The notes beneath the pieces were generated by a model. That model worked only from the letters and a program-made list of their open reading frames with translations, ran no database searches and had not been told where the DNA came from. From the NCBI GenBank assembly GCA_963674755.2, contig CAXXVS010000003.1:96001-160000 (forward strand): a stretch of DNA of 64,000 bases, given 5' to 3'. Both the position numbers and the translations under genes were made by a program. Positions 45,266 through 64,000 of the stretch are shown one piece after another (within the stretch, counting starts at the first letter, position 1; each line of letters starts with the position of its first letter). Origin of the DNA: Desulfobacterales bacterium (GTDB lineage Bacteria; Desulfobacterota; Desulfobacteria; Desulfobacterales; UBA5852).

Positions 45266-45406
45266 GGTTCAATGTCCCATACGGTTAGGGGAAAGGGCGC
45301 CTTGTTTCTCCCCAAGGTGTGCGAACAGGCGGAAAAGGCTTCGGAGAACACGCGCGCACAGAAAAAACCTTGACGCCTTGTGACATATCAGGCAGACCGT
45401 TCCGCT

Positions 45407-46600: not shown

Positions 46601-46699
46601 TCCGTTCTCTGCCGAAATAATCGGTTGATGGGCCTTGTTCGGTTACACTTGGCCACAAAGCAACTTATTTATGAATGACCGTCCTCATTATCTCCCGTT

Positions 46700-47896
46700 C
46701 TAAACAAAAATATCCAGCGCCTGCTGCAAATCCGACATCAGATCTTCCGCATTCTCGATACCGGTCGAGTAGCGGATCAACCCCTCCGGTATGCCCAGTT
46801 TGGCGCGCTCGTCCTGTGTGCATTCCACATGGCTGGTGGTCGCAGGGGGCCCCACGATGGTCTCGACCGCCCCCAAATTGGCCGCCGCATGGGCAAACCG
46901 CAGCCGGGGGATAAAACGGCTTACCGCTTCAAGCGTATCCTCTTTCAGCATAAAACTCATCATGCCGCCGAAGCCGCGCATTTGTTGTTTCGCAATCTGA
47001 TGGCCGTCATGGGAAGGAAGACCGGGGTAGAAAACACGTTCGATGGCGGGGTGCGATTCCAGATATTGGGCGATCCGCAGGGCGCTTTCATTTTGTCGCT
47101 GAATCCGCAGCTCAAGTGTTTTCATGCCCCGCAGGATCAGATACGCCGACATCGGGTGCAGGGTCGCGCCATTGATTTCGCGATAATGGTAAATCCGATC
47201 GATCAAATCCTTCCGGCCGCAAACGACGCCGCCTAACGCGTCGGCATGGCCACCGAGGAATTTGGTGGCGCTGTGCAGGACCAGATCCGCGCCCATTTGA
47301 AGGGGGTTCTGGTTGATGGGTGTTGCGAAGGTATTATCGACCACGACGATGGCGCCGACCGCCTCGGCCGCCTTCACCAGGCGTGGGATATCGATCACTT
47401 TGGTGGTGGGGTTGGTGGGGCTTTCCAGATAAAGCACTTTACAGCCGTTTGCGACTTCCCTTTCGATTTGTTCATGATCGGTGGTGTCGCACAATTTGGC
47501 CTCGATCCGAAATTTCGGCAAAAATTCGCTGAAAATCACACTGGTGCCGCCGTAGGTGTCCTTGACCGTGACCACACGATCTTGATCGGAAAGCAAGGCG
47601 AACAAGGTGCTGCTGATGATCCCCATGCCGGTTGCGGCGCTGGTCGCCGCTTCCCCATCTTCCAGATTGCGGACTTTCTCTTCAAACACCTGAACGGTCG
47701 GATTGGTGTTGCGGCTGTAGATATGGCCTTCCTTCCGCCCCAAGGCGACCTGCAGCCATTCATCCACATCCCGATAACCGAATGACACACTATGCACAAC
47801 AGGCACCTGGGTGGCACCCTGCATCAAATAGTCTTCTTCGCCTGCCCAAACCGCGCGTGTTCCCAGCCGTGGATTTTCACTCATGCTTTTGTCCAT
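46700..47896 (-). CDS. cystathionine gamma-synthase/lyase family PLP enzyme
   Basis: YSRNTNPT, ESPTNPT, VDNTFATP, HSATKFLGGH. Confidence 0.92.
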   Translation of the reverse strand: MDKSMSENPRLGTRAVWAGEEDYLMQGATQVPVVHSVSFGYRDVDEWLQVALGRKEGHIYSRNTNPTVQVFEEKVRNLEDGEAATSAATGMGIISSTLFALLSDQDRVVTVKDTYGGTSVIFSEFLPKFRIEAKLCDTTDHEQIEREVANGCKVLYLESPTNPTTKVIDIPRLVKAAEAVGAIVVVDNTFATPINQNPLQMGADLVLHSATKFLGGHADALGGVVCGRKDLIDRIYHYREINGATLHPMSAYLILRGMKTLELRIQRQNESALRIAQYLESHPAIERVFYPGLPSHDGHQIAKQQMRGFGGMMSFMLKEDTLEAVSRFIPRLRFAHAAANLGAVETIVGPPATTSHVECTQDERAKLGIPEGLIRYSTGIENAEDLMSDLQQALDIFV

Positions 47897-48199
47897 TCCT
47901 TTTACACTTTCATTTGATATTGCGATGTCGCCTGACCGATTGTTTTAATGCCCAAGCGTCGATGCGGATCCCCCATGGCCGCCGTCTGACCGCCGGGAGG
48001 CGCACTATACCGCGTTTGTCCCGCCTTGCCCACCTTTAAAGGGCCGTGGATAAACGACCCCTCAGGCCGCAATGCGGCGTTGTCCCGCGTTGCGGAAGTT
48101 CTCATCTGGTCTTATAGGCGTTGGTTTGGTCTGTCAGGGAATTTGGTTTGTTGGTGTGAAGACAACGTTTGTGAATATCGAAGGTCCCCCTCCCGCGTC

Positions 48200-50653
48200 T
48201 TATCCTTTGACCCCGTCCAGGACTTTCCGGATCGTTTTGGCAAGCGTCGCTTTGGCAACCGGCTTGTAAAGCATCGCCCTGATACCGATTTCAGCAGCCG
48301 ACTTTTCTGATATCCTGTTATTGTACCCGGTACAAATCAATATCGGAATATCGGGTCGAAGGGACATCAATCGGGATGCCAATCTATCCCCTGTGATGGT
48401 CGGCATGGTCATGTCGGTGATGACCAGATCGAATTCGTGCGGTGCTGAACGAAACAGGTCCAGAGCCTCCACACTGCTTGTTCTTACCGTCACTGAATAG
48501 CCTAAGGATTCGAGGGTCCGTCGACCCAATTTTGCAATGGCGGCTTCGTCGTCAACAAAAAGAATTCTCTCCGTACCCGTACCGGAAGGCAGACCCACAT
48601 TTTTCTCAACCTCGCAGCGTTTATCTTTTCTGCTCACCGGCAGATAAACGGTGAAGGTGCTTCCCAGGTCCGGTGTGCTGTCAACGAGAATTTTGCCGCC
48701 GTATTTTTCAACAATACCGTGAACAACCGACAGCCCCATACCGGTACCCTCGCCTGGAGGCTTCGTGGTGAAATAGGGCTCGAATATGGTATTGATAATT
48801 TCCTGGGGAATGCCCTTACCTGTGTCGGCTATTCTGACCTGCACATAGTCTCCTGGCTTTAAACCAAAATCGGCGGCTTTGTTCCCGGCCGTGACGCAGG
48901 TGTCCTTGATGATTACGTCGAGAACGCCGCCTTGATCATCCATTGATTGGGCCGCATTTGTGCACAAGTTCATAAAGATCTGATGAATCTGGGTGGCCGA
49001 TCCCATGACAAGGGATTTACTCTCTATCGTGTCATTAATCGCGATGGAGGCCGGTATTGAGGATCGTATAAATTTCAGGGCTTCTTTGGCAATAATGCCG
49101 ACCTGGACCGGTATGATCTCCTCATCGGTTTGACGGGCAAAGGTCAATATCTGTCGGACGAGGTCTTTGGCGCGTTTTCCTGCGGTATAAATTTCTTTGA
49201 GATCATCCGCAAGATCCGTATCTTTATCAACCTCCGCAAGCCCCACTTCGCTGAATCCGATAATGGCTGAAAGAATATTATTGAAATCATGGGCAATACC
49301 GCCGGCAAGGGTGCCGATGGCTTCGAGTTTTTGGGACTGGCGCAGCTGACCCTCAAGCCTGAGCTGTTCGGTGATGTCTTCAACAATTTCGATGGCGCCG
49401 GTAATCTGGCCGCGGTCATCCAGGATGGGAGATGAGATAATACGGTGATTGCGGATCTTTCCGCCCCGCTGTGTCATCACCCTTGCTTCATTTACGGTGC
49501 CGTCTTTGAGGGTTTTAATGGCGGGACAGTTATCGCAGACGCTTTCCCGGGGAGGGTCCGTGAAAGTGCAATGACAGATGGGCCGTTGGCCGATATCGAT
49601 ATCAGGGAACCTTTTGCGCAATTTTCGATTTATTTCGATAACTTCCATGTTCTGATTGATCAGGACCACCCCCATCCCGATATTGTCCACCATGGTCTGG
49701 AACTTTTGTTTGCTCGCCCGCAGTGCCTTCTCCGCTTTGCGGTTTAGTTCCATCTGTTCAATGCCATAGAGGGCCAGCCCGATATCCGATGCCACCTCTT
49801 TGACCAGGGACAGTTCGTCTTCAGAGGGCTCAATAATTTGAGGCGCCGCCAAGGCCATGACCCCGAATATTTTCCCCTGATGGGTCAGACCTACCGCCAT
49901 CCCGCAGTTGCTCGATTTTTTTGGTGCAAGGGGACAGGGTAGGCAATCGGATGCGCCCTCTTTAAACAAGAGGACCTCTTTAGACCTCATGGCTTGTTTG
50001 CAGCAGGGAGGCACGCTCTTCGAAAATAGGGCCTGTAGCGCCCCGGCGCTTTCTCCCAACCCTTCCGCTGCGAAGGCCATGGCGCTTCCGCTTGGTTCCA
50101 AAAGGGTTATCCAACCATGCCGGTAATGCCCCTCTTTAACGAGCAGTTTACAGGCGGATTGAATCAATGCCTTCGGGTCCTTCTCACGAACAATAAGCTG
50201 GTCGATACTGCGGATGGCCTGCAGCATCCTATTGTAATGCTTCAGTCTAACGCTGAGGCTTCCCCTTTCAATGGCATACCTGAGGACGCGCAACAGCATA
50301 TCGGTGTTTACTTGCCCTTTTACCAGATAATCCTGGGCGCCAATCCTGATGGCCTCCGTACCGAGCGTTTCGTCATCCAAACCGGTGAGCACAATGATCG
50401 GGATTTCCGGTGCTTCCGCTATGAAGCGTTTCAATGTCTCCAGGCCGGTGCTGTCTGGAAGGCCAAGGTCCAGAAACACCACATTGGATCTGTGCTTCTC
50501 CAGAATTTTCAGGGCGCTGCCCAGACTGCCGGCCGTCTCGGCCCGAAATGCCTTTCCGGACTGTTCAAGGTAGTCCAGGATGAGCTCCCGGTCGCCGGGG
50601 TTGTCTTCAACCAACAGGATATCAAATTCCACGGAGTTGGAATCCATCATCAT
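48200..50653 (-). CDS. hybrid histidine kinase (REC-GAF-PAS-HisKA-HATPase-REC)
   Basis: N-terminal LLVEDN..LDLGLPD, GGIAHDFNN, FTTK..GTGMGL, C-terminal FVDDE..TDMTMP. Confidence 0.92.
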   Translation of the reverse strand: MMMDSNSVEFDILLVEDNPGDRELILDYLEQSGKAFRAETAGSLGSALKILEKHRSNVVFLDLGLPDSTGLETLKRFIAEAPEIPIIVLTGLDDETLGTEAIRIGAQDYLVKGQVNTDMLLRVLRYAIERGSLSVRLKHYNRMLQAIRSIDQLIVREKDPKALIQSACKLLVKEGHYRHGWITLLEPSGSAMAFAAEGLGESAGALQALFSKSVPPCCKQAMRSKEVLLFKEGASDCLPCPLAPKKSSNCGMAVGLTHQGKIFGVMALAAPQIIEPSEDELSLVKEVASDIGLALYGIEQMELNRKAEKALRASKQKFQTMVDNIGMGVVLINQNMEVIEINRKLRKRFPDIDIGQRPICHCTFTDPPRESVCDNCPAIKTLKDGTVNEARVMTQRGGKIRNHRIISSPILDDRGQITGAIEIVEDITEQLRLEGQLRQSQKLEAIGTLAGGIAHDFNNILSAIIGFSEVGLAEVDKDTDLADDLKEIYTAGKRAKDLVRQILTFARQTDEEIIPVQVGIIAKEALKFIRSSIPASIAINDTIESKSLVMGSATQIHQIFMNLCTNAAQSMDDQGGVLDVIIKDTCVTAGNKAADFGLKPGDYVQVRIADTGKGIPQEIINTIFEPYFTTKPPGEGTGMGLSVVHGIVEKYGGKILVDSTPDLGSTFTVYLPVSRKDKRCEVEKNVGLPSGTGTERILFVDDEAAIAKLGRRTLESLGYSVTVRTSSVEALDLFRSAPHEFDLVITDMTMPTITGDRLASRLMSLRPDIPILICTGYNNRISEKSAAEIGIRAMLYKPVAKATLAKTIRKVLDGVKG

Positions 50654-50654
50654 T

Positions 50655-51086
50655 TTACGCCTCCGGCGGATAGCGAACCACCGAGAACCAGAAGCTTTCA
50701 ATGGCCGTTACGATCGTTTCGAAACCTTTCAGATCGACGGGTTTTGTTACGTATGCACTGGCTTGGAGGTCATAGCTTTTAAGGATATCCTCTTCTGCCG
50801 CTGAAGAGGTGAGAACCACCACCGGGATTCTTTTCAAGACGGGCATCTCTTTTATTTCAGCCAGAACCTGCCGTCCGTCTTTTTTGGGCAGGTTGAGATC
50901 CAGCAGAATCAGGTCAGGCCTGTCGGCGTTTTCATATGGGGGGTTGCGCAGCAAAAAATCCATTGCTTCCATACCGTCTTTAACAAGGGTGATCTCGTTT
51001 AAAATCTTGCTCGCTTCCAGCCTCTCGCAGGTCAGATCCGCATCCGCCGGGTTGTCTTCAACCAATAAAATTTTTATCAGTTCCAT
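50655..51086 (-). CDS. single-domain response regulator (Rcp1-like)
   Basis: [30 protein letters not shown]. Confidence 0.92.
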
Positions 51087-51108
51087 TATCTGACAGCCTC
51101 CGTGAAAG

Positions 51109-52566
51109 TTATTCTGCCGCTATCAATGAAAAATAAAAAACCGATCCCTTCCCGGGTTCGGATTCAACCCAGAGCTTCCCGCCATGACGTTCCACAATTT
51201 TTTTCGATATGGCAAGTCCGATGCCGGAACCCTGATAGGCATCACGTCCGTGGAGACGCTGAAAGATCACGAAAACCCGGTCAAAAAACATGGGATCGAT
51301 ACCGATTCCATTATCCTGGACTGAAAAGACCCATTTCGCGTTTTCCTTTTTTGCCCCAACTTTCACGACAGGGTTTTCCGCACCGTGAAACTTAATGGCA
51401 TTGCCGATGAGGTTCTGGAATAATTGGATAAGCTGGCCGTCGTCTCCCATAATCGTCGGTAATCTATCCACCTGGATTTGGGCCTGTTTTTCCTCAATGG
51501 CCTTGCTAAGCGCCCACAAGGCTTTTTCAACGATTTCATTGCCGTCAATTTTATCAAAGGATTTGCCGTGGGTATTCACCCGGGAAAGCCCAAGAAGATC
51601 ATTGATAAGCCCCTGCATACGCTTGGCACCATCAACGGCATAGCCTATATATTTGTCGGCTTTTGCATCGAGTTTTCCCTTGTACTTTTCTTCAAGAAGC
51701 TCGGTATAGCTGGCAACCATACGTAGCGGCTCCTGCAGATCGTGGGACGCTACATAGGCGAACTGTTGCAGTTCTTTATTGGAACGATTGAGTTCATCCA
51801 TCGCCCCTTTCAGCTTTTCATTTGCTTTTTGCGCCACCTGGCGGGCCTCTTCAGCATCCTGCGCCATTTTCAGGGTTGCTATCTGGGAATCCTTCAAATC
51901 CCGGGTGCGTTCCTCAATACGGGCTTCTAGGCTATGCATCAATTCCTGAAGCTGCATCTTATTCAATCCGGCTTCGGCAAGAAATACGGCAAGCTCTACA
52001 AGATAGTCGATTCTCAGCCTTACTTCTTCATCCGCTAATATAGGAACTTTTGATAGGGCCTGAAGGTATTCTTTTTCATTAAAACCGTATTGGCGGGCTT
52101 GTTGACGAAAAAAATGAATGTCAGGTGCCTCAGACAAAAACTGGCCGGTGAAAAGATTGGCAAGATGCGTACCCCGAATTTTGACCGGGAACGCCACGTC
52201 CACCATACCGTTCATACAGCGATAGACATTATATTGATCTCCCTGTCTGAGCATGTTGGCCAGGGCTGTATCCGATTCATGACAGCATTTTTCAGTTTCG
52301 GGATGAACCCGGTGAAACCGGGTGCAGATATCCTGCCATCCGGCGGCTACGAGTACCTTGCCATCCAGATCAAGCAAGGCTGTACCTGCGCCGGTGGCAG
52401 CCGAAAATTTTTCCATTAGCACCTGAAACTGATCAATATCAATCAGGTCGGAGATCTGATATTTTGTGCCGGGAAGATCATTCGATTGCTGCGATTCTGG
52501 TGTCACAAGGCGCCTCTTTTCTCCGTTTTTTGACAGCGCATTAACGTCTTCCTTGCGTTCAATCAT
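51109..52566 (-). CDS. PocR-domain sensor histidine kinase
   Basis: [20 protein letters not shown] PocR domain; [29 protein letters not shown]. Confidence 0.9.
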
Positions 52567-52594
52567 CCGCTTTTCCCCCCCGACGGCCATTTTA

Positions 52595-52760
52595 ATCGAG
52601 ATAAGGGAGAAGTCTCACGGCCTCCCCCCTCTCACACCATTCGGTATACGGAACCGTACCGGGCGGTTCATATCGTCTTGGGTGATCAGCGGGAACACTC
52701 CAGGGGCTGATGAGCCCCTTGTCGGCAAGTCCCATTTCTGGGGCGCCCTTGACGTGCAAA
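52595..52760 (-). mobile_element. 3' remnant of a group II intron (class C-like domains V and VI)
   Basis: minus strand GAACCGCCCGGTACGGTTCCGTATACCGAATGGTGTGAGAGG (DV), then GGGAGGCCGTGAGACTTCTCCCTTATCTCGAT (DVI, AY end); left extent approximate. Confidence 0.8.
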
Positions 52761-53091
52761 CCACAGAATCTCGTTACATTTAAGGTCTATCGCAGGTCAT
52801 AACCGCATAGATATATGCTCTCGCGAAGCGCTTTATCAAGCGAGCGCCTCATCAGCGTCAACCCGATCATGAGCGATGTTTAGGAGGGTGATCGGAGATA
52901 TGATGCGGCGCCGTCCATAACCAGATGTTTTGAGTTTTGCCATTGCGGCAATGAAGGGAAAAGAGCCGACGGCTTGCAAAAATTGTGATTATTACAATCA
53001 CCTAACATCAGAATCCCAACTTGTAAAGAACCTGCTAAAATCTTTACCAATCATAGTGATCTTACGATTAATCGTTTTTAGGGTTTTAGGT

Positions 53092-53203
53092 CTGTATGAC
53101 GGCGATTTCGACGTCGAAAATGCGATTATAGCGACATTATTAAGGGGGCCTTGGGAACCATCACTTGTGAGCTTTATTGGCGGGCTTGCTCCGACCGGGA
53201 ATC
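53092..53203 (+). repeat. junction repeat copy A (~110 bp)
   Basis: ungapped, roughly 70% match by eye to 57702-57811; ends GGCTTGCTCCGACCGG. Confidence 0.8.
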
Positions 53204-53241
53204 AGATGGTCCCCTGATCACCGGTGGGTTGGCGGCGCGGT

Positions 53242-53552
53242 GGGGGCAGGTCTCAACTTTTAACAAAAGGTAGATACAAGCGTTTCTTGTCTGCGCCGGG
53301 GTTTCCCTCAGCGCCCCTTTCACCAAATCCACGACCGTTCCCAGATCGATCCCTTCATGGATCTGCCTAAGTGCGGGAAGATCCCGGCTGCGGACCTGAT
53401 TGCCAAGAAAAATCTGGGGCAGATTGGCGGAGGGCGTCTCAAGCAGGAGGTGATAATGGTTGTCCATCAGGCAGAAGGCATGGCCGGCCGCATTGTACCG
53501 CTTGGAGGGGATATCGCCTGGCGGCTTTTTTTTGTCAAATGTTGCTGACCCC
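53242..53552 (-). mobile_element. internally deleted HUH/Y1 (RAYT-like) transposase element
   Basis: HAFCLMDNHYHLLLETP (HUH motif) fused to a C-terminal-like fragment; inverted ends GGGGCAG and CTGACCCC; TTGACA inside the 5' end. Confidence 0.8.
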
Positions 53553-53584
53553 GTCAAGGTTTCCGATTCCCTCCGCCGCCCATT

Positions 53585-54295
53585 TCAGGCTCCTCCCCGC
53601 TCTCCGCTCCTCCGGTTTCCTGCCTGTGTCCTTCCGGCCCTGAGCACCATCCGGATGGCATTTGACGCACAGGTCGCGACACACAAACCGCATCCGTAGC
53701 ATTTGTCCTGATGAAAGACCACGGCGCCCGATTCCCCGCTCTGGGCGCCAAAAACACAGCGTTCCGTACACGCACCGCACTGCACGCATGCGTCCGTGTC
53801 CACCACGGCGACATAATCCGCATGCGCCACCAGATCGGGCCGCCCAAGCTTCTTCATGAACCCGATATCATGGCAACAACACGCGCAGCAGCTGCAGAGC
53901 GCATACACATGCTGCTCGGGGTTATAAATGGTCAGGTGGACCAGCCCATGCGCATTCGCCAGCTTCAGCACCTCTGCCGCCTCCTCCAGATCGACGCGCC
54001 GGGCCGCCCCCTGGGCGACTTTTTTATCCGCCACATCGTTCGTATAAAAACAGACCTCCAGCGGATTGTCGCAGCGCTTGTGCTTGGTCCGGCACAAACA
54101 GTCGGCCAGCGCGAACGAGTGCGAATTCCGCAGAATCTCTATCACCTGCTGCGTCGGCAATACCCACTGCAAATAGTCCTGCGACTGCTGCACCGGGATG
54201 ACCTTCGATGAGAACGGAATCTTCCCCTCTTTTATCCACCCCTCATAGGTCTGCATCCGTTCCTCGAGCTCTTCGTCCCGTTCTTCTTTTTCCAT
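53585..54295 (-). CDS. 4Fe-4S dicluster protein
   Basis: CLCR, CSCCACCC, CVQCGACTERC, CYGCGLCVATC. Confidence 0.88.
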   Translation of the reverse strand: MEKEERDEELEERMQTYEGWIKEGKIPFSSKVIPVQQSQDYLQWVLPTQQVIEILRNSHSFALADCLCRTKHKRCDNPLEVCFYTNDVADKKVAQGAARRVDLEEAAEVLKLANAHGLVHLTIYNPEQHVYALCSCCACCCHDIGFMKKLGRPDLVAHADYVAVVDTDACVQCGACTERCVFGAQSGESGAVVFHQDKCYGCGLCVATCASNAIRMVLRAGRTQAGNRRSGERGGA

Positions 54296-54398
54296 ACCGC
54301 ATCCCCCTGTGGTTTGATGCTGCTAAGATGAGTAGATGGATCTTGACCGTAATCTGCCACATCTGGATGGACACTATTTAAACGCGGACGAGAATAAT

Positions 54399-54420
54399 GT
54401 ACACTCACTTGTCAGTATAC
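54399..54420. promoter_or_regulatory. putative TetR operator
   Basis: imperfect palindrome GTACACTCAC-TT-GTCAGTATAC just upstream of the tetR RBS. Confidence 0.55.
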
Positions 54421-54436
54421 TTATAGGAGGAGCGCC

Positions 54437-55030
54437 ATGCGCAGAAAATCCGCAGAAACCCGGCAGCAGATCATCGATGCGGCCTATACCCTTTTTTATC
54501 AGCGCGGCTTCATGCGGACCGGCGTCGATGCGGTCGCCCATGCGGCGGGCATTACCAAGCGAACGCTCTATCAGCACTTCGGCAGCAAGGATGACCTGAT
54601 CGAAGCGGTGCTGGAACATCAGCACCAGATGGCGCTCGAACGCATCCGGCGGTGGGCCGATCGCCTCACCGGAAAACCGGATCAGATGGTGATGACGCTT
54701 TTTGGAAAACTCGCTCAATGGGCCGCCGGCCCGGAGTGGCAGGGATCCGGCTTTACCCGGGCGGCGGTGGAATTTGCCGATCAGCCGGGACATCCGGCCC
54801 GCAAAGCGGCGCGCCGGCAAAAGGCCGCGGTCGAAAGGTATCTGGTAGAAAAGTTTGCCGCCCATGGTCTGGATGATGCCGAACAACTGGTGCGGGAAGT
54901 CCTGTTGTTGATCGAGGGGTGTCAGACCCTGGCCCTGATTCATGACAATTTGGACTATATCGATGCTGCCCGCCATGCCGCCTTGATCCTGGTCCGAAAC
55001 AGTCAATCAACGACGGCGGGAAATATATAA
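54437..55030 (+). CDS. TetR/AcrR family regulator
   Basis: AAYTLFYQRGF..TGVDAVA..AGITKRTLYQHFGSKDDL; AGGAGG RBS. Confidence 0.93.
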   Translation: MRRKSAETRQQIIDAAYTLFYQRGFMRTGVDAVAHAAGITKRTLYQHFGSKDDLIEAVLEHQHQMALERIRRWADRLTGKPDQMVMTLFGKLAQWAAGPEWQGSGFTRAAVEFADQPGHPARKAARRQKAAVERYLVEKFAAHGLDDAEQLVREVLLLIEGCQTLALIHDNLDYIDAARHAALILVRNSQSTTAGNI

Positions 55031-55083
55031 CCCGGCCGGAAATCAGACACTATGCGTAATGCGTCCACATAAGGGTGAGGTTT

Positions 55084-55104
55084 TTGGCGGGGTTCGACCC
55101 GATT
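55084..55104 (+). repeat. junction repeat core, copy F (degenerate)
   Basis: TTGGCGGGGTTCGACCCGATT versus core TTGGCTTGGTCCGACCCGATT. Confidence 0.55.
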
Positions 55105-55145
55105 CGAATCGGCAACGCCCGCCGGAGGGCAAGCAGGAAGCGACA

Positions 55146-55883
55146 TTAGCCGCCAAAGCCCCCGACGCCCTTGAGCAGCATCAGCGCGCCCAGGGCGAAC
55201 AGCAGGATGTAGATGGTCCGTTTGTAAAGGCGCTGGTCGATGGTATCAAAGAGCCGCATACCAGTGAAAACACCGGCCAGAAGGGGCACAAGGCAGTAGG
55301 TGAAGTGGTGGACCACCTCAGCCGTGACCAGTCCGGAAAAAAACTGCAGCGCAAGGATCAGCGCACCGCTGATACAGAAAAATGTCACCAGGGTGGCCTT
55401 GATCTGGTGTTTGGGCCATGGCTGCAGGGCCGTGTATACAATCACAGGCGGGCCTGCCGCCCCGATGCTGGCGCCCAGAAGCCCGGCGCTGAAGCCGGCG
55501 GTGAAAGTCCAGCGTTGCTTCAATTCCGTTTTCGACGACCCGTGTTGCCAGGTCGTGGCCGTCGTGGCGATGATCACGCCCCCCACCAGCAACTCCAACC
55601 ATTGCGCTTCGACCGTTTTGAGAATGTAGACCCCCACAGGCACCCCCGGAAGAGACGCTATCAGCAGGGGCAGCCACTTGCGGGCCTGAACGTGGCGGGC
55701 GAGCCGCCAGACGAGGATAACGTTCATCACCAGGCCCAGCATCATGATCAGCGGGATGGCCGTCTTGATGTCGATCATCAGCGCCATGAGGGGCAGGGAC
55801 ACCAGCATCAGACCGAATCCGGTCATGCCCTGAACGAGCCCGCCCAGATAGGCAATAAGGGCCAGGTATACTGTTTCAGCCAT
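55146..55883 (-). CDS. TauE/SafE family exporter
   Basis: GLVQGMTGFG, GAAGPP, multiple TM segments. Confidence 0.9.
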   Translation of the reverse strand: MAETVYLALIAYLGGLVQGMTGFGLMLVSLPLMALMIDIKTAIPLIMMLGLVMNVILVWRLARHVQARKWLPLLIASLPGVPVGVYILKTVEAQWLELLVGGVIIATTATTWQHGSSKTELKQRWTFTAGFSAGLLGASIGAAGPPVIVYTALQPWPKHQIKATLVTFFCISGALILALQFFSGLVTAEVVHHFTYCLVPLLAGVFTGMRLFDTIDQRLYKRTIYILLFALGALMLLKGVGGFGG

Positions 55884-55939
55884 GCCTCAACCATCGCGGT
55901 TACTGTTTTTCAAACCCGGGGGCCCCGATTTGGAGACGG

Positions 55940-57499
55940 TTAAACCGGGTTGGCTTGGTCCGACCCGTTCGAAACGTTTGACGCCCCGCAAACGAGCTCC
56001 GCTAAAAATCTGGAAAATGGTTCGATATTTTTTCTCATGCTGGCTTCTTCCAAAGCAGCCATATAGTCATTGCGGGTTTCAAGCGGAATTACGGTCCACG
56101 GATAGCCGCCGCTGGCTAACATGACATTCATCAGAAATCTTCCCATGCGGCCATTTCCATCAACATAGGGATGTATAAATACAAAGAAGAAGTGGCCTAA
56201 AACAGCCCTCACAGCGGGCTCTTTTTCATTTTTTAAAAGCGTGAAAAAGGCCGGCATTAGATCACGCACGGCTTCACAGCGAGGCGGTATATGCCTTGAT
56301 TTACGTATATAGACAGGCTGGCTGCGATAGCCGGCAAGATCAGATGCCGTTATTATACCCGCACTTATACTTGGGGCGAACAGCTCTCGGTACCATATGG
56401 AGTGATCCTGGCATACCACTGTTCCTGCTGCGTTTTCATTTAGAACCTTGGTCAAGCTTCTCTTCACCGCTTGAAAAGCCTGCCAGTAACCACGCGCCGC
56501 CAATGCATCGGCGTACGCTTTGTCTTTGCGGTTTGTTTCCGGGTCCCAATTCCCTGAGCGAATACGTTCAATAAGCGCTTCACTAACACGGTACCCTTCA
56601 ATAGAAAGCGAATGGTAGGCATCCGTCAGGTATAGGTCGTCGACATGTTTAAGATATTCGTCGGTGTTCTGGCGCATGGCAGGCGCCTGCGGAAAGTTTT
56701 CAAGGACAACGCCGCGCATCTCGGCCCAGTTCATCCGTATCCGGTTGACGTAAGGTGAAAGCTCGCGTTCACTGAAAACAATGGCCGGTTTTCCCTCAAA
56801 AGGGTCGTTCTCTGTAATGCTGTATCCAGCAGCTCGCATTGTCTCGATAATGTTGTCGGCAATCGCATTCTTCCCAATATTTCGGAAAGCGCCGGCAAGC
56901 CTGCCGGCTACGGTGCTATGTCCACCTTCAAGAAGCTTGTGCAATATTTCGGAAGCATCAGGAATCATGGACAGCACCGCGCGGGCTTCTGCCGCATGAT
57001 TTGAATAAAAGCCGGGCGCACATGCAATCAAGGCCGCGGGCAGGGTCATCATCTGCAAGTTTTCTTTGCTTTCGATATCGTTCTTGTCCGGCAATTTCAG
57101 GCGGGCGTCCAGTATGGCGGTTTTATGAAGAAGAGAGGTTGGTTTGTTGCCGCCCTTTGGGGTGCGAACAAGCAGTTGTCCCGGGACATTCCAGTTTCCG
57201 CTGTGAATGCATAATGATTGTTCAGGGGAAAGGCACCACTGATGACCAAACCTTGATTTAAGGTAATCGGCACAAAATCCCCAAAATGAAGCATACCATG
57301 CCGTACTTTCCCCGGTTGGCGCTTCGGGGCGGACCGAAATATACCATCCTTTCATTACTTCTTTGATAAGTCCGTTTTTGAGGAGCCGTTCCCGGTGCGT
57401 GCGGGTCATATTCTTTGAATGAATTGCGACGATGCCCTCATCCTGAAGTTTTTTCAGGACAGCGAGAGATTCCGAAAGCTTATCCTGTGGTGTTGCCAT
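55940..57499 (-). CDS. Fic family protein
   Basis: intact Fic motif HPYVDGNGRMGR; DAYHSLSIEGY; lower GC than flanks. Confidence 0.93.
   Translation of the reverse strand: MATPQDKLSESLAVLKKLQDEGIVAIHSKNMTRTHRERLLKNGLIKEVMKGWYISVRPEAPTGESTAWYASFWGFCADYLKSRFGHQWCLSPEQSLCIHSGNWNVPGQLLVRTPKGGNKPTSLLHKTAILDARLKLPDKNDIESKENLQMMTLPAALIACAPGFYSNHAAEARAVLSMIPDASEILHKLLEGGHSTVAGRLAGAFRNIGKNAIADNIIETMRAAGYSITENDPFEGKPAIVFSERELSPYVNRIRMNWAEMRGVVLENFPQAPAMRQNTDEYLKHVDDLYLTDAYHSLSIEGYRVSEALIERIRSGNWDPETNRKDKAYADALAARGYWQAFQAVKRSLTKVLNENAAGTVVCQDHSIWYRELFAPSISAGIITASDLAGYRSQPVYIRKSRHIPPRCEAVRDLMPAFFTLLKNEKEPAVRAVLGHFFFVFIHPYVDGNGRMGRFLMNVMLASGGYPWTVIPLETRNDYMAALEEASMRKNIEPFSRFLAELVCGASNVSNGSDQANPV
55949..55967 (+). 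repeat. junction repeat core, copy E
   Basis: GTTGGCTTGGTCCGACCCG, identical to 57790-57808; overlaps the last codons of fic. Confidence 0.85.
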
Positions 57500-57540
57500 T
57501 TTTTGGCCTTTATATTGATGTATCCGCGTTTGGTTATTTC

Positions 57541-57630
57541 AGGTTATTGTGTTCTATTGTTTTTAGGTTTTCGTGTCAAACATATTTAAGGTTATTTGGT
57601 TGTTCTATATTCAGGTTATTGTGTTGCTAT
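57541..57630. repeat. four direct repeats with exact 24-bp period upstream of fic
   Basis: AGGTTATT or AGGTTTTC starting at 57541, 57565, 57589 and 57613. Confidence 0.8.
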
Positions 57631-57661
57631 GCATCGGTGCTTCAGGTGCCATACCTGTCCA

Positions 57662-57811
57662 GGTAGAAAATGCCGATGAGCGCATTCCATGGTTACGGAT
57701 TCCGCATGACACCAATTTTGGGGTTAAAAACGCAGTTATAGAGGCAATATTATGGAGGCTTTGGGAACAATCATGTGTGAATTCTATTAGTTGGCTTGGT
57801 CCGACCCGATT
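57662..57811 (+). repeat. junction repeat copy B (longest, ~150 bp)
   Basis: GGTAGAAAATGCCGATGAGCGC...GGAACAATCATGTGTGAA...TAGTTGGCTTGGTCCGACCCGATT. Confidence 0.9.
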
Positions 57812-57819
57812 GAAATCTC

Positions 57820-58614
57820 TTAAACCAGTTTCTCGGTTTCAGTGAGCCATGACAGCAGGGTGTTGTTGAACGCGCGCGTCCGGTCGATCATGACCCAATG
57901 CCCGGCGGGCAAGGCAATCACGCGGTTGCCAGGCCGCTTGGCGAGACCCTCGATCCAGGCGCGCGAGTGGAACATGAGCGGCTTGCGTTCGCCGTAGATA
58001 TAGAGCATGGGACAGTGCGGATCGAAGGCCCGGAGGCCGCGGAGCCCGCCGGAAACGCCCAGCCAGGCCAGCGCATAGGGATAACCCATTTGCGAACCGA
58101 TGCGCTCGGGGTCGGTCGGACAACGCAATACGCGCGCCATCCAGCGCGACATGGCATCTCCGATCCTGCCGCCTATGCGCCAGGCGAGGGCCAGCCACAT
58201 CTGATAGGCCGCCACCATGAGCACGCCCTTGGCGCCCAGTTCCGCGCGGTGGTTTCGCGAGCCGGCGTCACCGATGTCCACGCCGATCACCCGCTCGACA
58301 ACCTGCGGATGTCGCATGGCAAACTGGTAGCCGAAGAAGCAGCCCCAATCGTGCAGCAACAAGCTTACGCGCTGATCAGGGCAGGCCTCGTCGACCACGC
58401 GGCGGATCGTCCCGACAACTTCGGCCAGCGAATAGGCGCGGCCTTTCCGTGACAGGTCGAATCCCGGCAGGGTGAAGCGCACGCAGCGCAAGCGGCCCTT
58501 CAAGGCCTCGACCTGGGCATCCCACAACGCGTGCGTGTCAGGCCAGCCATGGATCATCACGATCGCTTGCGGGCCGGCGCCCTCGATCATCACGTCGACA
58601 TCGCCAATCCTCAT
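57820..58614 (-). CDS. alpha/beta hydrolase
   Basis: HGWPD, HDWG nucleophile elbow, GHW. Confidence 0.88.
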   Translation of the reverse strand: MRIGDVDVMIEGAGPQAIVMIHGWPDTHALWDAQVEALKGRLRCVRFTLPGFDLSRKGRAYSLAEVVGTIRRVVDEACPDQRVSLLLHDWGCFFGYQFAMRHPQVVERVIGVDIGDAGSRNHRAELGAKGVLMVAAYQMWLALAWRIGGRIGDAMSRWMARVLRCPTDPERIGSQMGYPYALAWLGVSGGLRGLRAFDPHCPMLYIYGERKPLMFHSRAWIEGLAKRPGNRVIALPAGHWVMIDRTRAFNNTLLSWLTETEKLV

Positions 58615-58660
58615 GCCGCCAACTCCTTATTCGGGACCGCCGGGCATCGGCATTGGGGGC

Positions 58661-59698
58661 TTACCACGGCGTGGGTTTGGGGTTGCGCTGGTCGAAGCCT
58701 TTCTGGTGCCAGTAAGGATAGGCGGGCTCGCGGTGGCTGGCCGCGTCGAGCTTGGCGATCTGCGCCCCGTCCAGTTGCCACCCCACTGCCCCGAGGTTCT
58801 GCTTCAACTGGTCGGCATTGCGCGCGCCCACCACCACGTTGCTGACCGTCGGCCGCTGCAACAGCCAGTTGAGCGCCACCTGCGGGATGGTTTTGCCGGT
58901 CTCGGCCGCCACCTCCTGCAGCGCGTCCACCACCGTGAACAGGTATTCGTCGTCCACCGGCGGGCCGCCCTCGGCGCCGCCCTGGGCGATGCGCCCCTCC
59001 TTGGGCGGGTTGTTGCGGGTGATTTTGCCGGTAAGGCGCCCCCAGCCCAGCGGACTCCACACCATCAGCCCCACGCCCTGGTCGAGTCCCAGCGGCATCA
59101 GTTCCCATTCGTAATCGCGCCCCACCAGCGAGTAGTAGCCCTGGTAGGCCACGTAGCGGGCCAGCCCGTGTTTTTCCGACGTGGCCAGCGACTTCATGAG
59201 GTGCCAGCCCGAGAAGTTGGAGGCGCCGATGTAGCGCACCTTGCCGGACGCGATGAGGTTGTCGAGCGCCGCCAGGGTTTCTTCCACCGGCGTCAGCGCG
59301 TCGAAGCCGTGCATGAAGTAAACGTCGATATGGTCGGTGCCGAGCCGCTTCAGGCTGTCTTCCGCGGCGCGGATGAGGTGGTAGCGCGACGAGCCGCATT
59401 CGTTCGGCCCTTCGCCCATGGCGAAGGTGGCCTTGGTGGCGATGAGCACGTCGTTGCGCCTTCGGCCCACCGCCTTGCCGAGAATTTCTTCCGCCAGGCC
59501 GTTGGAATAGATATCCGCCGTGTCGAAAAAATTCATGCCGTGCTCAAGGCAGATATCCACCAGCTCCGTGGCTTCCTTCACATCGATACTGCCCCACTTC
59601 CTGAAGAATTCGCTGTTGCCCCCAAAGGTGCCCGTGCCCAGGCTGAAGGCCGGCACCATCAGCCCCGAGCGCCCGAGTTGGCGATATTCCATGCTCAT
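58661..59698 (-). CDS. aldo/keto reductase
   Basis: YRQLGRSGL, FFDTADIY, IATK, SLKRLGTDHID, GKVRYIGASN, WSPL. Confidence 0.95.
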   Translation of the reverse strand: MSMEYRQLGRSGLMVPAFSLGTGTFGGNSEFFRKWGSIDVKEATELVDICLEHGMNFFDTADIYSNGLAEEILGKAVGRRRNDVLIATKATFAMGEGPNECGSSRYHLIRAAEDSLKRLGTDHIDVYFMHGFDALTPVEETLAALDNLIASGKVRYIGASNFSGWHLMKSLATSEKHGLARYVAYQGYYSLVGRDYEWELMPLGLDQGVGLMVWSPLGWGRLTGKITRNNPPKEGRIAQGGAEGGPPVDDEYLFTVVDALQEVAAETGKTIPQVALNWLLQRPTVSNVVVGARNADQLKQNLGAVGWQLDGAQIAKLDAASHREPAYPYWHQKGFDQRNPKPTPW

Positions 59699-59965
59699 GG
59701 TGGTTCCCCCTCTTTTGGTTGTGGTGGGTCCATACGTTGCCATAAGCTATCAACGGATGGGCCGCGCGCAAGGGGCCGCCTTTCAGTAAACGGATGAATC
59801 GGGGCGCACCAAGAGATCTACCTGCTTTCACGTCGCTTATGCGTCATAGCCGTTGATTTCGGCAAACTGTAGCGCCATTTTGACCACAAGAATTCTCGCT
59901 ATACCGCAATTGGTCTTTCTGCTGTTCCTAACCAGATACCGATACGTCGGATGCTAAGCCCTCCG

Positions 59966-60014
59966 GGTAGAAAATGCCCATGAGCGCGCGCCATGGTTTT
60001 GGTCCGACCCGATT
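59966..60014 (+). repeat. junction repeat copy D (internally deleted)
   Basis: 5' part GGTAGAAAATGCCCATGAGCGC..CCATGGTT joined directly to core TTGGTCCGACCCGATT. Confidence 0.85.
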
Positions 60015-60157
60015 TGCCCCCTTAGTAAGATGAACTTCATTTCCGGTTTGACCTGACTATGGCTCTATAGTTTAGAAGAAGTTGACGGTCATCGACAAAG
60101 TCTTTCCCGATAGCCGGAAAACCTGCCAATACATGCTATTTTGAAAAAGGTGTCCGC

Positions 60158-61090
60158 ATGCGAGATTACATCAAAGGCGTGTATCTATGCCTGATCGTCG
60201 GCAGCGTGACTTTTTCCTGGGGCTGCAAGAAGGATCCGGGTCCGGGCGACAGGTCCTGGCACCAGGTCGTGGCAAACCATCTGCGAAAAGTCGATGTGGG
60301 CGGATATTCGCTGAATGCCGTTGACATGGGAACGGGCATCCCCGTGGTCATGATTCACGGCTTCGCGGATTCCGCCTACTGCTACCACAGGAACGTCCAA
60401 ACGGTTCTCGAACATGGATTCCGTGTTGTTCTGCCCGAGCCGCCGGGATTGGGCCAATCGGATATCCCGCCCGCACCCTACGTGTACAGCGTTGAGAACC
60501 AGGCCGAGGCCATCCGCACCTGTTTGGACCGGATGGGCATCGAGCGTTTCATACTGGTCGGCCACTCCATGGGCGGTGGGATTGCGCTGTATTTGGCCAC
60601 GCACTACCCGCAGCGCATCGCCAAGCTGATGATTATCGATGCGGCCTGCTACGATCCCAAAAGATTCCAATTTTTCAGGCTACCGGGAGCGTCGCATTTT
60701 GCCGGCGCCATTGCCGGGAAATGGATCATCCGTATGGCGTTGAATGATGTCTTCTACGACAAAAGCAAGGTCACCGACGCCATGGTCTCCGAGTATGCGC
60801 AACCTTTACGCAAACCAGGGTACGTGAAGGTATTGGCAGGACTTTCGAAGCAATATTTTTCCGAAGCGCATACCGCCATGCAGTCGCGCTACGGTCATCT
60901 GGACACGCCCCTGTTTATTGTCTGGGGCCGCGCAGACACCTGGCTCCCCCCTGAATTCGGGGAAACGCTTGCCAGCACGGCGCCACATGCCAGACTATAT
61001 CTTTTGAAAGATGCAGGCCACAGCCCCCATCAGGAGCAACCGGAAGTATTTAACAAACTGCTTGCTGAATTTTTAAAGGACGGCGCTTGA
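60158..61090 (+). CDS. alpha/beta hydrolase, probable lipoprotein
   Basis: lipobox-like FSWGC, HGF, GHSMGG, WGRAD, GHSPHQE. Confidence 0.88.
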   Translation: MRDYIKGVYLCLIVGSVTFSWGCKKDPGPGDRSWHQVVANHLRKVDVGGYSLNAVDMGTGIPVVMIHGFADSAYCYHRNVQTVLEHGFRVVLPEPPGLGQSDIPPAPYVYSVENQAEAIRTCLDRMGIERFILVGHSMGGGIALYLATHYPQRIAKLMIIDAACYDPKRFQFFRLPGASHFAGAIAGKWIIRMALNDVFYDKSKVTDAMVSEYAQPLRKPGYVKVLAGLSKQYFSEAHTAMQSRYGHLDTPLFIVWGRADTWLPPEFGETLASTAPHARLYLLKDAGHSPHQEQPEVFNKLLAEFLKDGA

Positions 61091-61094
61091 GCAG

Positions 61095-61240
61095 GGAAGT
61101 GGCGATGAGGGCGTGCCATGGCTGCGGCGTTCGCATAACCCTGATTTTCAGGTCAAAAATGGCATCATAGGGACTATATTGGGGTGGTTTTCGGAACAAT
61201 CATGTGTGAAATCTCTTAGTTGGCTTGTCCGACCCGGAAT
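61095..61240 (+). repeat. junction repeat copy C (~145 bp)
   Basis: colinear with copy B, sharing GGAACAATCATGTGTGAA and TAGTTGGCTTG(G)TCCGACCCG. Confidence 0.9.
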
Positions 61241-61312
61241 CAGGCTCTGCCGTAAGGTCGTTAAGATAATCTGGTGTGCAAACCATTTGTGCACTTTGTC
61301 AACAACGTCCCC

Positions 61313-61661
61313 TCGATGGTCTGGAATCAGCGCCTATATTGTCTGTGATTGGCTTGACAGACAGCCAGAGGACCCGGGAGACTTAAACGAGATAGCGTTG
61401 CGGTTCGGATTGTCTCGAAGCTTACTTACACGCGAATTTAGAAGTTATACGAATACAAGCATTGTTGAATATATCAATATCCGACGCCTCCAAAAGGCCG
61501 GGATAATTCTTTCATCAACAGGTGAAGGTATTGCCGAGGCAGCATTTCAGAGCGGTTTTTCAAGTTTACCCAACTTTTATAGGCAGTTCAAAAGAATGTA
61601 TGGTGTGTCACCAGCAGAATTTCGCAATCAATTCTTCAAAAAAGTCGAAAAGGATGTTTGA
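61313..61661 (+). pseudogene. 5'-truncated AraC-family regulator (HTH domain only)
   Basis: LNEIA.RFGLS..EYINIRRLQKA..AAFQSGFSSLPNFYRQFKR.YGVSP; upstream part of the ORF is repeat-derived. Confidence 0.75.
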
Positions 61662-61805
61662 AAGATCACATACTGATGGAGATCTCGGCGATAGAGATCG
61701 ATAGTAACACTGGGGGCATCGATACGGGCTTGGCGAGGCAGACGGAGAGGTTAGCAGATCAGATTGAAAATTGATACTTATTATGAATGGGCCCCCTTTT
61801 AGCCC

Positions 61806-62900
61806 CTAATCCTCCACCTCCGACCAACGATAGAACATCTTGAGCCCATTACCATGAGAATTAGGCAAACGCTTATCATGCTGCAATCGCCCAACGACAA
61901 TTCCTGGCGCTATTTTTATTTTCTTTGCAAAGGTCTTAATTGGGGCGAATGATCGCCCATCCCATGATTCAATAAATTTTCGGTAATCGGCTGGAGGAAT
62001 TAATCTATCCCTGGCGAAGGCATTGGCTTCTTCCTCTTTTTCACAATTCATACCGTTGCCTTCTATAAAAATTTCCTTGCGTCCATGCAGGAGTATATGC
62101 CCCGCCTCATGAAAAAATGTGAACCAAAGATGGTCATTGCTCTTATACCGGAGGCTCAACTGAATGACGGCCTTGTTGCCGAGCCAACGGGTTGCGCCAT
62201 AAACCCCGGTCTTTGACAACTCGGGGACAAAAACTACTGCTACACCAGCCGAAGCACAGACCTCTAACAATCTCCTTTGGAAAAGATGCGGCTTTTCGAT
62301 GGTCAGCCCTCGTATGTTGCCCAACGCCTCTTGAAATCGTTTATTATTAAATTGGTCACAAGATATTTTTCTTGCTTCGAGCTCACCCTGTCGAAGCCAG
62401 GCCGATACCGATTCAGCGCAGGCCTCAAAGCGTTGTGTCTGTCGATAAGCCACTTGGTGTTTTCGCCAAACTGTCACCCATTGATCAGGAGATGCCACCC
62501 CAAAAAAACGTAAAACTTCAGTCAGTTGAGATATCTTGTCTTTTTTTTTAGGAATCCACCCCAGTTTGGTCAGTTGACCAACGGGCACCTTTTTTAACCA
62601 GTCCAATTGGGAGGACAGTCTCTTTGCTTCGGCTAAACGGGAGCGATCTTCCTGGAACTGTCTCTCAAGGTTGTTCCAGAAATGCGCAGGACGGCCAAGC
62701 GAATGTTCAAATTTCAGCGCTGTATCTGGTGTTATAGGCGATTTCCCCTTGATGATTTCATTGATGGTTTTTTTTGCAAGTCCAGTCCTAGCAGCTAATT
62801 CGGCCTGGGTCATGCTGAAGGCTTCCAAATATTCCTCCAAAACCTCTCCTGGTAGAACCAAATAATCCGGATCATATTGCGTTGAGGTCTTATCAGCCAT
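61806..62900 (-). CDS. higA: HigA-type HTH antitoxin fused to ImmA/IrrE-like metallopeptidase
   Basis: PGEVLEEYLE..MTQAELA..INEIIKGK..FWNNL; FTFFHEAGH (HExxH). Confidence 0.88.
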   Translation of the reverse strand: MADKTSTQYDPDYLVLPGEVLEEYLEAFSMTQAELAARTGLAKKTINEIIKGKSPITPDTALKFEHSLGRPAHFWNNLERQFQEDRSRLAEAKRLSSQLDWLKKVPVGQLTKLGWIPKKKDKISQLTEVLRFFGVASPDQWVTVWRKHQVAYRQTQRFEACAESVSAWLRQGELEARKISCDQFNNKRFQEALGNIRGLTIEKPHLFQRRLLEVCASAGVAVVFVPELSKTGVYGATRWLGNKAVIQLSLRYKSNDHLWFTFFHEAGHILLHGRKEIFIEGNGMNCEKEEEANAFARDRLIPPADYRKFIESWDGRSFAPIKTFAKKIKIAPGIVVGRLQHDKRLPNSHGNGLKMFYRWSEVED

Positions 62901-63240
62901 GGGTGTCCTCCACTCCCAGTATTTTGATCGCAGTGACCTGGGACCAGTCTAATCCACCGTCATCAAGCTTTGGGACAGGATCATGATCGGGGGTGAAAAT
63001 TAGACGGTAGGGATGATCCAGATCCACGGATAGTTGACCAGACCTTTTCCCTTCAGTGAGCTCATGACAGCGGCCAGGCGGACTTTTAGGCGGCCAGAAA
63101 TCCTTCAAACTATTAGCCGCCCGCAATTCTGTCATGCGTATGCGTATCTTCTTAGCCCGCGAACTACCGTGAATTTTCACGAGTTGCGGCCCCTCGTTGA
63201 AGGATTTTGCAAGTTTCTTGTTCTTAAAGGATATATTCAT
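62893..63240 (-). CDS. higB: HigB/RelE-like toxin
   Basis: MNISFKNKKL, RCHELT..RSGQLSVDLDHPYRLIF, EDTH; upstream of and overlapping higA. Confidence 0.85.
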   Translation of the reverse strand: MNISFKNKKLAKSFNEGPQLVKIHGSSRAKKIRIRMTELRAANSLKDFWPPKSPPGRCHELTEGKRSGQLSVDLDHPYRLIFTPDHDPVPKLDDGGLDWSQVTAIKILGVEDTHG

Positions 63241-63262
63241 ATATCATATAGTCAAGAAGTTG

Positions 63263-63279
63263 TTAACCCATTAGGTTAA
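63263..63279. promoter_or_regulatory. putative HigA operator
   Basis: palindrome TTAACC-CATTA-GGTTAA about 22 nt upstream of the higB start. Confidence 0.6.
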
Positions 63280-63413
63280 TTATTTTTAAGATAACATGGT
63301 TGCGGTTTATAGAATGCAAATGTTCTGGAGCCTTGTGTGACTATAGAAAAGTGCGCAGGGGACGTACACAAACATGCGGGATGTTGGCCGGCTTTACTGC
63401 AGAAGATGATATC

Positions 63414-63611
63414 AGAAGCTATTCCAAAAAAGTCTTCTCGCCCGATCCGCCAGCGGCGGGCAAGTATCGGCGTTGATGCCTCGTCTCAAATCCTCGCCAT
63501 ACCTGAGTATGTACCCAAGGGTACTTCCTTCGGGCGCCTACGGATTGATTCTCAGCCTCGTCTTGATCTTGAACGAAAACCCTAATTCTTGGATGGCTTT
63601 TGGAAATTGCT
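63414..63611. repeat. MITE-like non-coding element
   Basis: imperfect terminal inverted repeats AGCTATTCCAAAAAG / CTTTTGGAAATTGCT; no credible ORF. Confidence 0.45.
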
Positions 63612-63690
63612 ACCATAATCGGAACGGCATGTAAAGCGCACGGTTTCGGATTTTCTGCATTATTGCGATGACTTACAATTATATTTTGTT

Positions 63691-63718
63691 CTGGATGCCC
63701 GCCTGCGCAGGCATGACG
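63691..63718. repeat. REP-like palindromic repeat unit
   Basis: CTGGATGCCCGCCTGCGCAGGCATGAC resembles the widespread GTCATTCCCGCGCAGGCGGGAATCCAG-type repeat. Confidence 0.6.
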
Positions 63719-63738
63719 GTGGAGGGTTGGCCTTCTCG

Positions 63739-63801
63739 AAATCGGGATCGAGCTTCGATTTATTTCGATTGCGATTTCGATCCCGATAGCGATCCCGATT
63801 T
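63739..63801. repeat. inverted array of CGATNN hexamers
   Basis: AAATCGGGATCG ... CGATTGCGATTTCGATCCCGATAGCGATCCCGATTT; 12-bp perfect terminal inverted repeat. Confidence 0.7.
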
Positions 63802-64000
63802 GTAGCGCCTATAACTGCATTCTAACCGCCGGAATTCGCTTTATGCTGCGTTTCGCATAATCTCCGCCTGCTTCTCATCCTCCTCCCCCGCGAACGAAAT
63901 ATTTTCGGAGGCGATCCGGATTGTCCGGAAGGGCGACCCTGCCGTACCGGGCGATCCAGCGCCCGTCATTCGGCTGGTGGCTTGCCATGGTTGATGGATC

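Follow-up and report, generated by a model that had tools for sequence, protein, structure and literature searches.

TIRtrons, described by Di Nocera et al. 2013 (PMC3733652), consist of a RAYT-like HUH/Y1 transposase gene (TIRYT) between inverted repeats that start with GGGGTC, they lack REP hairpins and their repeats occur either singly or in clusters. They have been linked to TnpA-Y1 subclass 2.1 (Quentin et al. 2018, PMC6006769), which is the same as RAYT group 1 (Bertels et al. 2017, PMC5581495). The element is thus already in print but little studied; TIRtrons are known from sequence, and in the portions of these accounts available to us the way in which they move is left open. Here we compare with them an array from a 64,000-nucleotide stretch of a Desulfobacterales bacterium (the window; assembly GCA_963674755.2, contig CAXXVS010000003.1, positions 96,001 to 160,000 of the forward strand), using the window's own 6.7 Mb genome (G000, contigs C1, C2 and C3) and other genomes (G001 to G014; L numbers denote individual loci). 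Downstream of uvrA, blocks of accessory genes are separated by co-oriented repeats (copies A to F), which an initial annotation had taken for the recombination sites of a gene-capture array. Each of these repeats proves to be a TIRtron left end; the elements are ~930 bp long and have terminal inverted repeats on either side of a Y1/HUH transposase gene. The array at the uvrA locus is a real feature.

Several other described systems share some of these features, judging from the sections of the papers that were accessible. IS608 and ISDra2 have in common with the element described here the Y1/HUH fold, the absence of a target duplication and a coding strand on the lagging-strand template, on which they excise and insert (PMC5027513); they differ in having subterminal hairpins and no terminal inverted repeats (PMC3333891), whereas the ends described here are inverted repeats without special folding. 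The RAYT/TnpA-REP system and its REP/BIME arrays include the best structural match (4ER8), and the TnpA-REP model of cleavage at a variable distance with local amplification fits copies that are fixed on the outside and variable on the inside (PMC3333891); however, there is no GTAG-tagged hairpin here and whole elements are found in several copies per locus. The translocatable-unit arrays of IS26 (PMC4196232) likewise have copies of an element in direct orientation, with unrelated gene segments lying between them, but IS26 uses DDE chemistry, intact copies and demonstrated targeting, in contrast to the HUH chemistry, decayed ends and imprecise breakpoints seen here. Fragments of subclass 2.1 tnpA associated with prochlorosin genes (10.1101/2020.03.09.984088) are likewise truncated, lie among variable genes and have a fixed orientation, although most of them are C-terminal, inverted repeats were not found with them and they have a single partner gene family; their authors later saw no strong evidence for or against causation by the fragments.

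Published accounts of TIRtrons, in the parts available, do not describe co-oriented end remnants that divide islands, and in the literature searched, of which coverage was incomplete and supplements were left out, no mention was found of TIRtrons in connection with a replication bias, local partial duplication or reordering of blocks.

The repeats are the left ends of TIRtrons

An 18-mer core is matched four times at up to 3 mismatches in the window (55084, 55950, 57791 and 59994), always on one strand, against a mean of 0.12 matches in shuffled windows (n=100), none of which reached four; the repeats are real and above chance, as first annotated. Copies A, B and C align with one another at 73-77% identity across 100-150 nt, and an independent profile, built solely on 35 left ends, all intact and all in other genomes, recovers copies A to D with a weak match to E (Table 1). 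Copy F is absent from the matches of this profile; this degenerate copy has the same position, after tauE, as a clear copy in the congener G004. A profile search of the whole genome identified four additional strong copies, which form two pairs, at C3:2.306 Mb and 2.477-2.488 Mb, with the same orientation within each pair, and a further leader remnant in the window that the independent profile does not list and by which the island extends past the coordinates given initially.

When the minus strand is read, the core in copies B, C and D is followed by a leader of ~115 nt, which D has lost, and then by the start codon and initial 8-20 codons of a transposase gene, so that the suggested link between the repeats and Y1/HUH transposases stands. 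The initial annotation was also right that one boundary of the copies is fixed and the other variable, but because the meaningful strand is the minus strand the conserved core is the outer 5' end of the element and the variable boundary is the inner one. Similarly copies B and D are real but had been drawn too short, B continuing to about 57626 with 20 transposase codons and D having an inverted right end at about 59800, which makes D the only two-ended copy in a window where left ends outnumber right ends by 6 to 1. The distant copies G1 and H1 have the same protein start together with a C-terminal piece, and an intact version at locus L036 is a 261-aa gene flanked by inverted repeats. Of 82 related loci, 40 yielded both inverted repeats, in most cases separated by about 930 bp. 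The consensus end of 39 elements is WWYGGGGTCGGRCCAAGCTAAC; its start, GGGGTCGG, agrees at 6 of 8 positions, all but the last two, with the motif GGGGWSAS, which according to the portion of the source available is common to some TIRtrons but not all (PMC3733652). No target-site duplication is found in 32-37 of the 39 elements at each of six offsets, the longest being 3 nt, unlike what is expected of a classical insertion sequence (IS) or miniature inverted-repeat element (MITE) with a DDE transposase.

All 15 intact relatives of the encoded protein match Y1_Tnp, H60 and H62 (the HUH pair) and the catalytic tyrosine Y121 are invariant in them, and the predicted fold is nearest to 4ER8, the REP-associated transposase of E. 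coli (E 8e-7). The motif around the tyrosine, again invariant in 15 of 15, is Y-x-x-x-N-M, in place of the class 2 signature Y---NP, and the conserved ~110-aa C-terminal extension, which in subclass 2.1.2 is reported in the sections seen as like a helix-turn-helix (HTH) domain (PMC6006769), has no Pfam HTH match at E up to 1. The RAYT equivalog NF047646 gives 73.4 bits, under its curated cut-off of 80. By sequence the subfamily is probably a member of TnpA-Y1 subclass 2.1, a placement that is unproven because Y---NM replaces Y---NP and the HTH domain is undetected.

No intact gene of this TIRtron subfamily was found in G000; near-complete genes are present in the congeners G005 and G006. The mini-transposase next to copy A, initially put forward as the enzyme of the array, was rejected in that role, as it has no significant match to the cognate protein and resembles the Y1 genes of another TIRtron family; its match to the RAYT profile is weak. 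Instead of a site dedicated to cassettes the repeat is therefore the terminus of a known kind of element, and an objection that the initial annotation had raised against itself, that the repeats would prove to be known IS ends, turned out to be correct.

In integrons and in clusters of attC sites lacking integron integrases (CALIN), unrelated accessory blocks stand in a row with co-oriented repeats between them, and the array shares with them both this layout and changes in block order. The features that had prompted the comparison were largely borne out: the gene content is modular, composition differs between modules (GC 0.50 in fic, 0.645 in the hydrolase and aldo/keto reductase, AKR) and the copies lie close to gene ends, with the core of B 11 nt from the hydrolase stop, E within the fic 3' end and C ~5 nt past the lipoprotein stop. 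Furthermore an integron integrase that scores over the curated cut-off is encoded at C2:2339256-2340191, with several fragments elsewhere in the genome, and fic homologues elsewhere have putative attC-like flanks. An integron-type array, with atypical attC sites used in trans by this integrase, would nevertheless have to be reconciled with the finding, by regular-expression search, of paired RYYYAAC and GTTRRRY boxes in none of the six copies, and with seven folds in which an attC-type bottom-strand hairpin is no better than in shuffles (z from -0.56 to +2.15). There is no adjacent intI and no tyrosine recombinase or integrase in the window, in line with the initial annotation, which had seen neither canonical attC nor integrase nearby; the genes lie on both strands and have their own regulators, junctions are imprecise, and the repeat is a transposon end. 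With no attC boxes, special fold or integrase in the window this explanation is largely refuted, and we consider it extremely improbable.

Orientation and local origin of the copies

At least one element end was located at 145 of 157 related loci, where further copies of an element's own ends were counted nearby at a minimum of 80% identity and 40 nt. There are 38 such copies, at 19 of the 145 loci. Every one of them has the orientation of the transposase gene, including all 31 that lie farther off than 300 bp, which bears out the polarity described for the array; at a threshold of 70% identity 2 of 49 copies are opposite, both at one locus. A first tally of bare repeat motifs near intact elements had given 19 plus and 16 minus and no polarity, because left and right ends look alike and polarity is seen only once ends have been assigned.

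GC skew places the origin of G000 at C3:349 kb and the terminus at C2:1.02 Mb. The coding strand of TIRtron loci of all families is on the leading strand in 13 of 14 cases (gene baseline 51%, p 0.002), a count that leaves out a match at C3:239757 because its assignment to a left or a right end is ambiguous; if it is counted against, the figures are 13 of 15 and p 0.008. In relatives from the family, 26 of 32 TIRtron loci are on the leading strand by local skew, four being orthologues of the uvrA locus, and the same strand comparison for other IS types gives 3/5, 0/4, 2/3 and 3/8. The TIRtron coding strand in this genus thus lies on the leading strand, that is on the lagging-strand template, and all copies probably face the same way because TIRtrons land in step with chromosome replication. 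Co-orientation had been presented as a trait of the array; it is shared by other TIRtron families, genome-wide along the direction of replication and also in the island, where four remnants of such families are on the same strand as copies A-F.

With respect to the source of the copies, 12 left ends from the uvrA locus were compared, and each of them is most similar to another copy from there, with a mean of 75% inside the locus and 56% elsewhere; members of the G pair are 88% alike and those of the H pair 78%. This closest resemblance of copies to their neighbours suggests local re-insertion. Sibling copies have 4-7 outer bases in common, and an outer-base pattern, chosen after looking, is present in 10 of 17 uvrA-locus copies, which are not independent, compared with 1 of 39 intact elements. 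Among the 38 fresh copies 30 are cut short inside and 22 begin at most 10 nt from the repeat edge, and the junction therefore lies a few bases outside the repeat, instead of at the core where the cut had been placed. Fresh copies are balanced between left ends (17) and right ends (21). A ~200-bp composite with a non-element spacer is present three times in G010 and twice in G001.

Gene blocks and their rearrangement

Among 13 genomes of the genus the interval between uvrA and the helicase gene is nearly empty in three (G003, G009 and G011), unresolved in five, and occupied in the other five (G000, G001, G004, G005 and G010) by an island with co-oriented left ends. The island is lineage-specific, and both the content and the order of its blocks differ between species. 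In G000 the order is AKR-hydrolase, fic, tauE, a Cys/Met enzyme dependent on pyridoxal phosphate (PLP) and MFS, in G004 it is AKR-hydrolase-tauE, MFS and Cys/Met, and in G001 Cys/Met precedes AKR. Most shared blocks are headed by a TIRtron end (AKR in four species, Cys/Met in three of four), with copy D also found at the head of the AKR block in G001 and G010. Homologues of the blocks, sought in 301 genomes per search, are few beyond the genus (in 4 and 8 other genomes).

The explanation that we favour, and hold to be fairly probable, is that the array is a decayed TIRtron cluster, in which a fork-coupled HUH transposase re-inserted copies near the donor on one strand, the copies eroded, and host recombination permuted the blocks. 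A TIRYT enzyme, no longer present, would have worked on single-stranded DNA at the replication fork in the manner of IS608 TnpA, which would fix the orientation of every insertion. It would have returned complete or one-ended copies to sites no more than a few kb from the donor, with the cut a few bases beyond the inverted repeat and a variable inner end point. Intergenic insertions would have been retained by selection whilst deletions eroded the copies, and the resulting direct repeats would be substrates for host recombination by which blocks are deleted, duplicated or permuted. The cleavage, the local hopping and the recombination route are suggested in part by analogy with the TnpA-REP amplification model, in so far as the accessible text sets it out (PMC3333891). 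The ends would then mark and promote rearrangement, and would not be cassette sites of a dedicated recombinase. The uvrA locus and its relatives would add to the known picture of TIRtrons a strand polarity like that of IS608, local re-insertion after a cut a few bases outside the repeat, and reordering at remnants; should this reordering be due to host recombination, debris of TIRtrons would be a modest but general source of island plasticity and the label "integron-like" would be unsuitable.

A number of observations weigh against this explanation. When the skew test was applied to a taxonomically mixed set, the result (61/96, 43/70 and 14/28, depending on flank length) tracked gene strand, a confounding factor, and the link to replication did not hold up there. 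In the tree the uvrA-locus clade has a support of just 38% and includes one outside element, and the orthologous copies in five congeners are not independent. The excess of left ends at the uvrA locus (6 to 1) is unexplained when fresh copies are balanced. Two order swaps would require either excision and re-entry or duplication and loss, neither of which was observed, and no TIRYT activity is reported in the literature found, with its incomplete coverage and without supplements.

These two swaps, of Cys/Met with MFS and of AKR with Cys/Met, would fit active carriage of cargo, in which TIRYT moves one end and the genes behind it, with a fixed outer end and a variable far end, to a place beside a resident end, as in IS26 translocatable units; this is a corrected form of the idea put forward in the initial annotation. 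TIRYT would in that case be a fork-coupled, one-ended gene shuffler that cuts outside one repeat and re-inserts the single-stranded end with its genes near a resident end. The TIRtron ends kept at the head of shared blocks point the same way, as do the different genes that follow AKR in three lineages, the loci at which whole copies alternate with 1-4 genes (L050 and L084) or right ends with single genes (L244), and the triplicated composite in G010. However, the fresh duplicates at 19 loci reach at most about 20-30 nt into flanking DNA. The initial annotation had looked to an alignment of the locus downstream of uvrA for modules lost exactly at the core and none was seen; the single clean loss, that of B-fic-E in G004, is imprecise, with similarity ending about 22 nt outside B and restarting 55 nt past the start of E, so that both cores are gone. 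At 19 fic-homologue loci similarity ends at least 24 nt before E, and the repeat lies within 1.5 kb at only 2 of these and at none of 10 AKR, tetR or tauE-homologue loci outside the genus locus. Block order over 54144-58754 is furthermore unchanged in a close strain from another study (run X7). We regard carriage of cargo as unlikely, and a shuffling TIRYT as an equally doubtful candidate; were it true, HUH chemistry would give rise to polar integron-like arrays, by a route of gene capture of which the literature searched has no record and which would be a new way of assembling accessory genes.

It is also conceivable, though rather improbable, that the copies are passive debris of independent TIRtron insertions into a tolerant island, with no role in rearrangement, the blocks having moved by other routes. 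Several TIRtron families and other repeats do coexist in the island, and some junctions between species lie away from the repeat, for example that of MFS to DUF2007. Against this, the copies are nearest to their neighbours and have outer flank bases in common, and several switches of downstream content fall inside an end remnant (after tauE and before Cys/Met). In contigs from sequencing runs, which drop rare variants, none of the 15 joints listed (of 95) is at a core.

Other TIRtron families and further features of the island

Table 1. Features of the accessory island by position in the window; E values for copies A to E are those of the independent profile
Feature	Position	Strand	Remarks
Whole accessory island	40893..64000	.	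~23.5 kb, from the uvrA(-like) stop to a DEAD-box helicase gene just beyond the window end
Further leader remnant	44814..44887	-	Without terminal repeat; E 9e-6 in genome profile search
Left-end remnant, C1:626353-type family	46658..46684	-	Ahead of MFS block; 93% across 27 nt
Copy A	53094..53204	-	Diverged left end and leader, ends ahead of start codon; E 4e-4
Internally deleted mini-element ("mini-transposase")	53244..53562	-	Different TIRtron family; piecewise 82-85% identity with longer Y1 genes in G004 and G014
Block: 4Fe-4S protein and divergent TetR regulator	53585..55030	.	4Fe-4S protein minus, TetR regulator plus
Copy F	55084..55104	-	Degenerate inverted repeat 3' of tauE; 3 mismatches to core
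Block: TauE/SafE exporter	55146..55883	-	Common to G004
Copy E	55944..55969	-	Inverted repeat alone; fic frame runs through; E 0.36 (weak)
Block: Fic-domain gene	55940..57499	-	Last codons and native stop lost
Copy B	57626..57811	-	Left end, leader, first ~20 transposase codons; abuts fic upstream region; E 4e-26
Block: AKR and alpha/beta hydrolase	57820..59743	-	AKR common to G001, G004 and G010
Copy D	59797..60014	-	Mini-element: left repeat at 60011 without leader, ~11 codons, degenerate inverted right repeat ~59800; E 0.002
Block: lipoprotein alpha/beta hydrolase	60158..61090	+	
Copy C	61097..61240	-	Left end with inverted repeat and ~115-nt leader, running into the first ~8 transposase codons; E 4e-12 (profile positions 3-139)
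Left end, third TIRtron family	61286..61313	-	28/28 nt identical to left end of intact gene at C2:1645185
AraC-type DNA-binding domain	61320..61661	+	Without N-terminal part; flanked by TIRtron ends of other families
Leader and start of further TIRtron-type gene	61708..61762	-	78% across 58 nt to element at C1:626353

A second array, of another TIRtron family, is found at C2:1644100-1654300, with five left and two right ends, an intact 322-aa gene and unrelated genes between them; all its ends and the intact gene are co-oriented and its layout is as at the uvrA locus. Around C3:2.306 Mb (L001:9800-11000) two left ends, 88% alike, surround a gene fragment, a putative attC-like stretch and a UPF0158 gene. 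The region C3:2.471-2.495 Mb (L002:3000-13900 and L003:7600-14500) contains an AT-rich row of co-oriented open reading frames (Mrr-like nuclease, FRG domain) together with copies H1 and H2; it also has a single right end at C3:2494462 and several ~65-bp palindromes, each composed of two inverted ends of another TIRtron family, which recur elsewhere in the genome. Single contigs of sequencing run X3 join 53538 to 48212 and 61782 to 59663 (depth 9.6 and 3.2), at ends of other TIRtron families, a hint of strain-level hops of these families.

The island further contains a two-component cluster, the Cys/Met PLP enzyme, the MFS and DUF2007 genes, a YadA-like adhesin gene with internal repeats at one edge (43284-44798) and a higBA-type pair at the other (61806-63240). 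The fic upstream region (57500-57627) carries short direct repeats, and in about half of the fic homologues similarity starts at nearly one base (57624-57627), where copy B is cut off. Two further multi-copy short repeats are present at 48036-48119 (about 10 places in the genome) and 63410-63600 (about 15). The first of these occupies the site at which other species have a left end ahead of the Cys/Met gene, and a suspected tiny TIRtron remnant at ~48070 was rejected as being the end of this separate repeat.

A structured RNA was rejected, with no Rfam match in the window. A stretch directly upstream of the histidine kinase gene (52595-52900, minus strand) has what we take to be a likeness to the 3' end of a group II intron, which is unconfirmed, with no Rfam match at E up to 1. 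A promoter in the left end was likewise rejected, as a consensus scan found 4 sites against 6.0 expected and none on the element strand within a copy.

Finally, short tandem stutters, made up of the last repeat bases and a few flank bases, are seen just outside TIRtron ends (L036:1126-1175, L046, L119, L190 and C1:917360-917420), and are possibly footprints of repeated nicking and re-joining. At L049 about 22 copies of a 24-30-bp repeat, at a spacing of ~61 bp and CRISPR-like in layout, lie beside a left end about 200-1450 bp upstream of the transposase gene.

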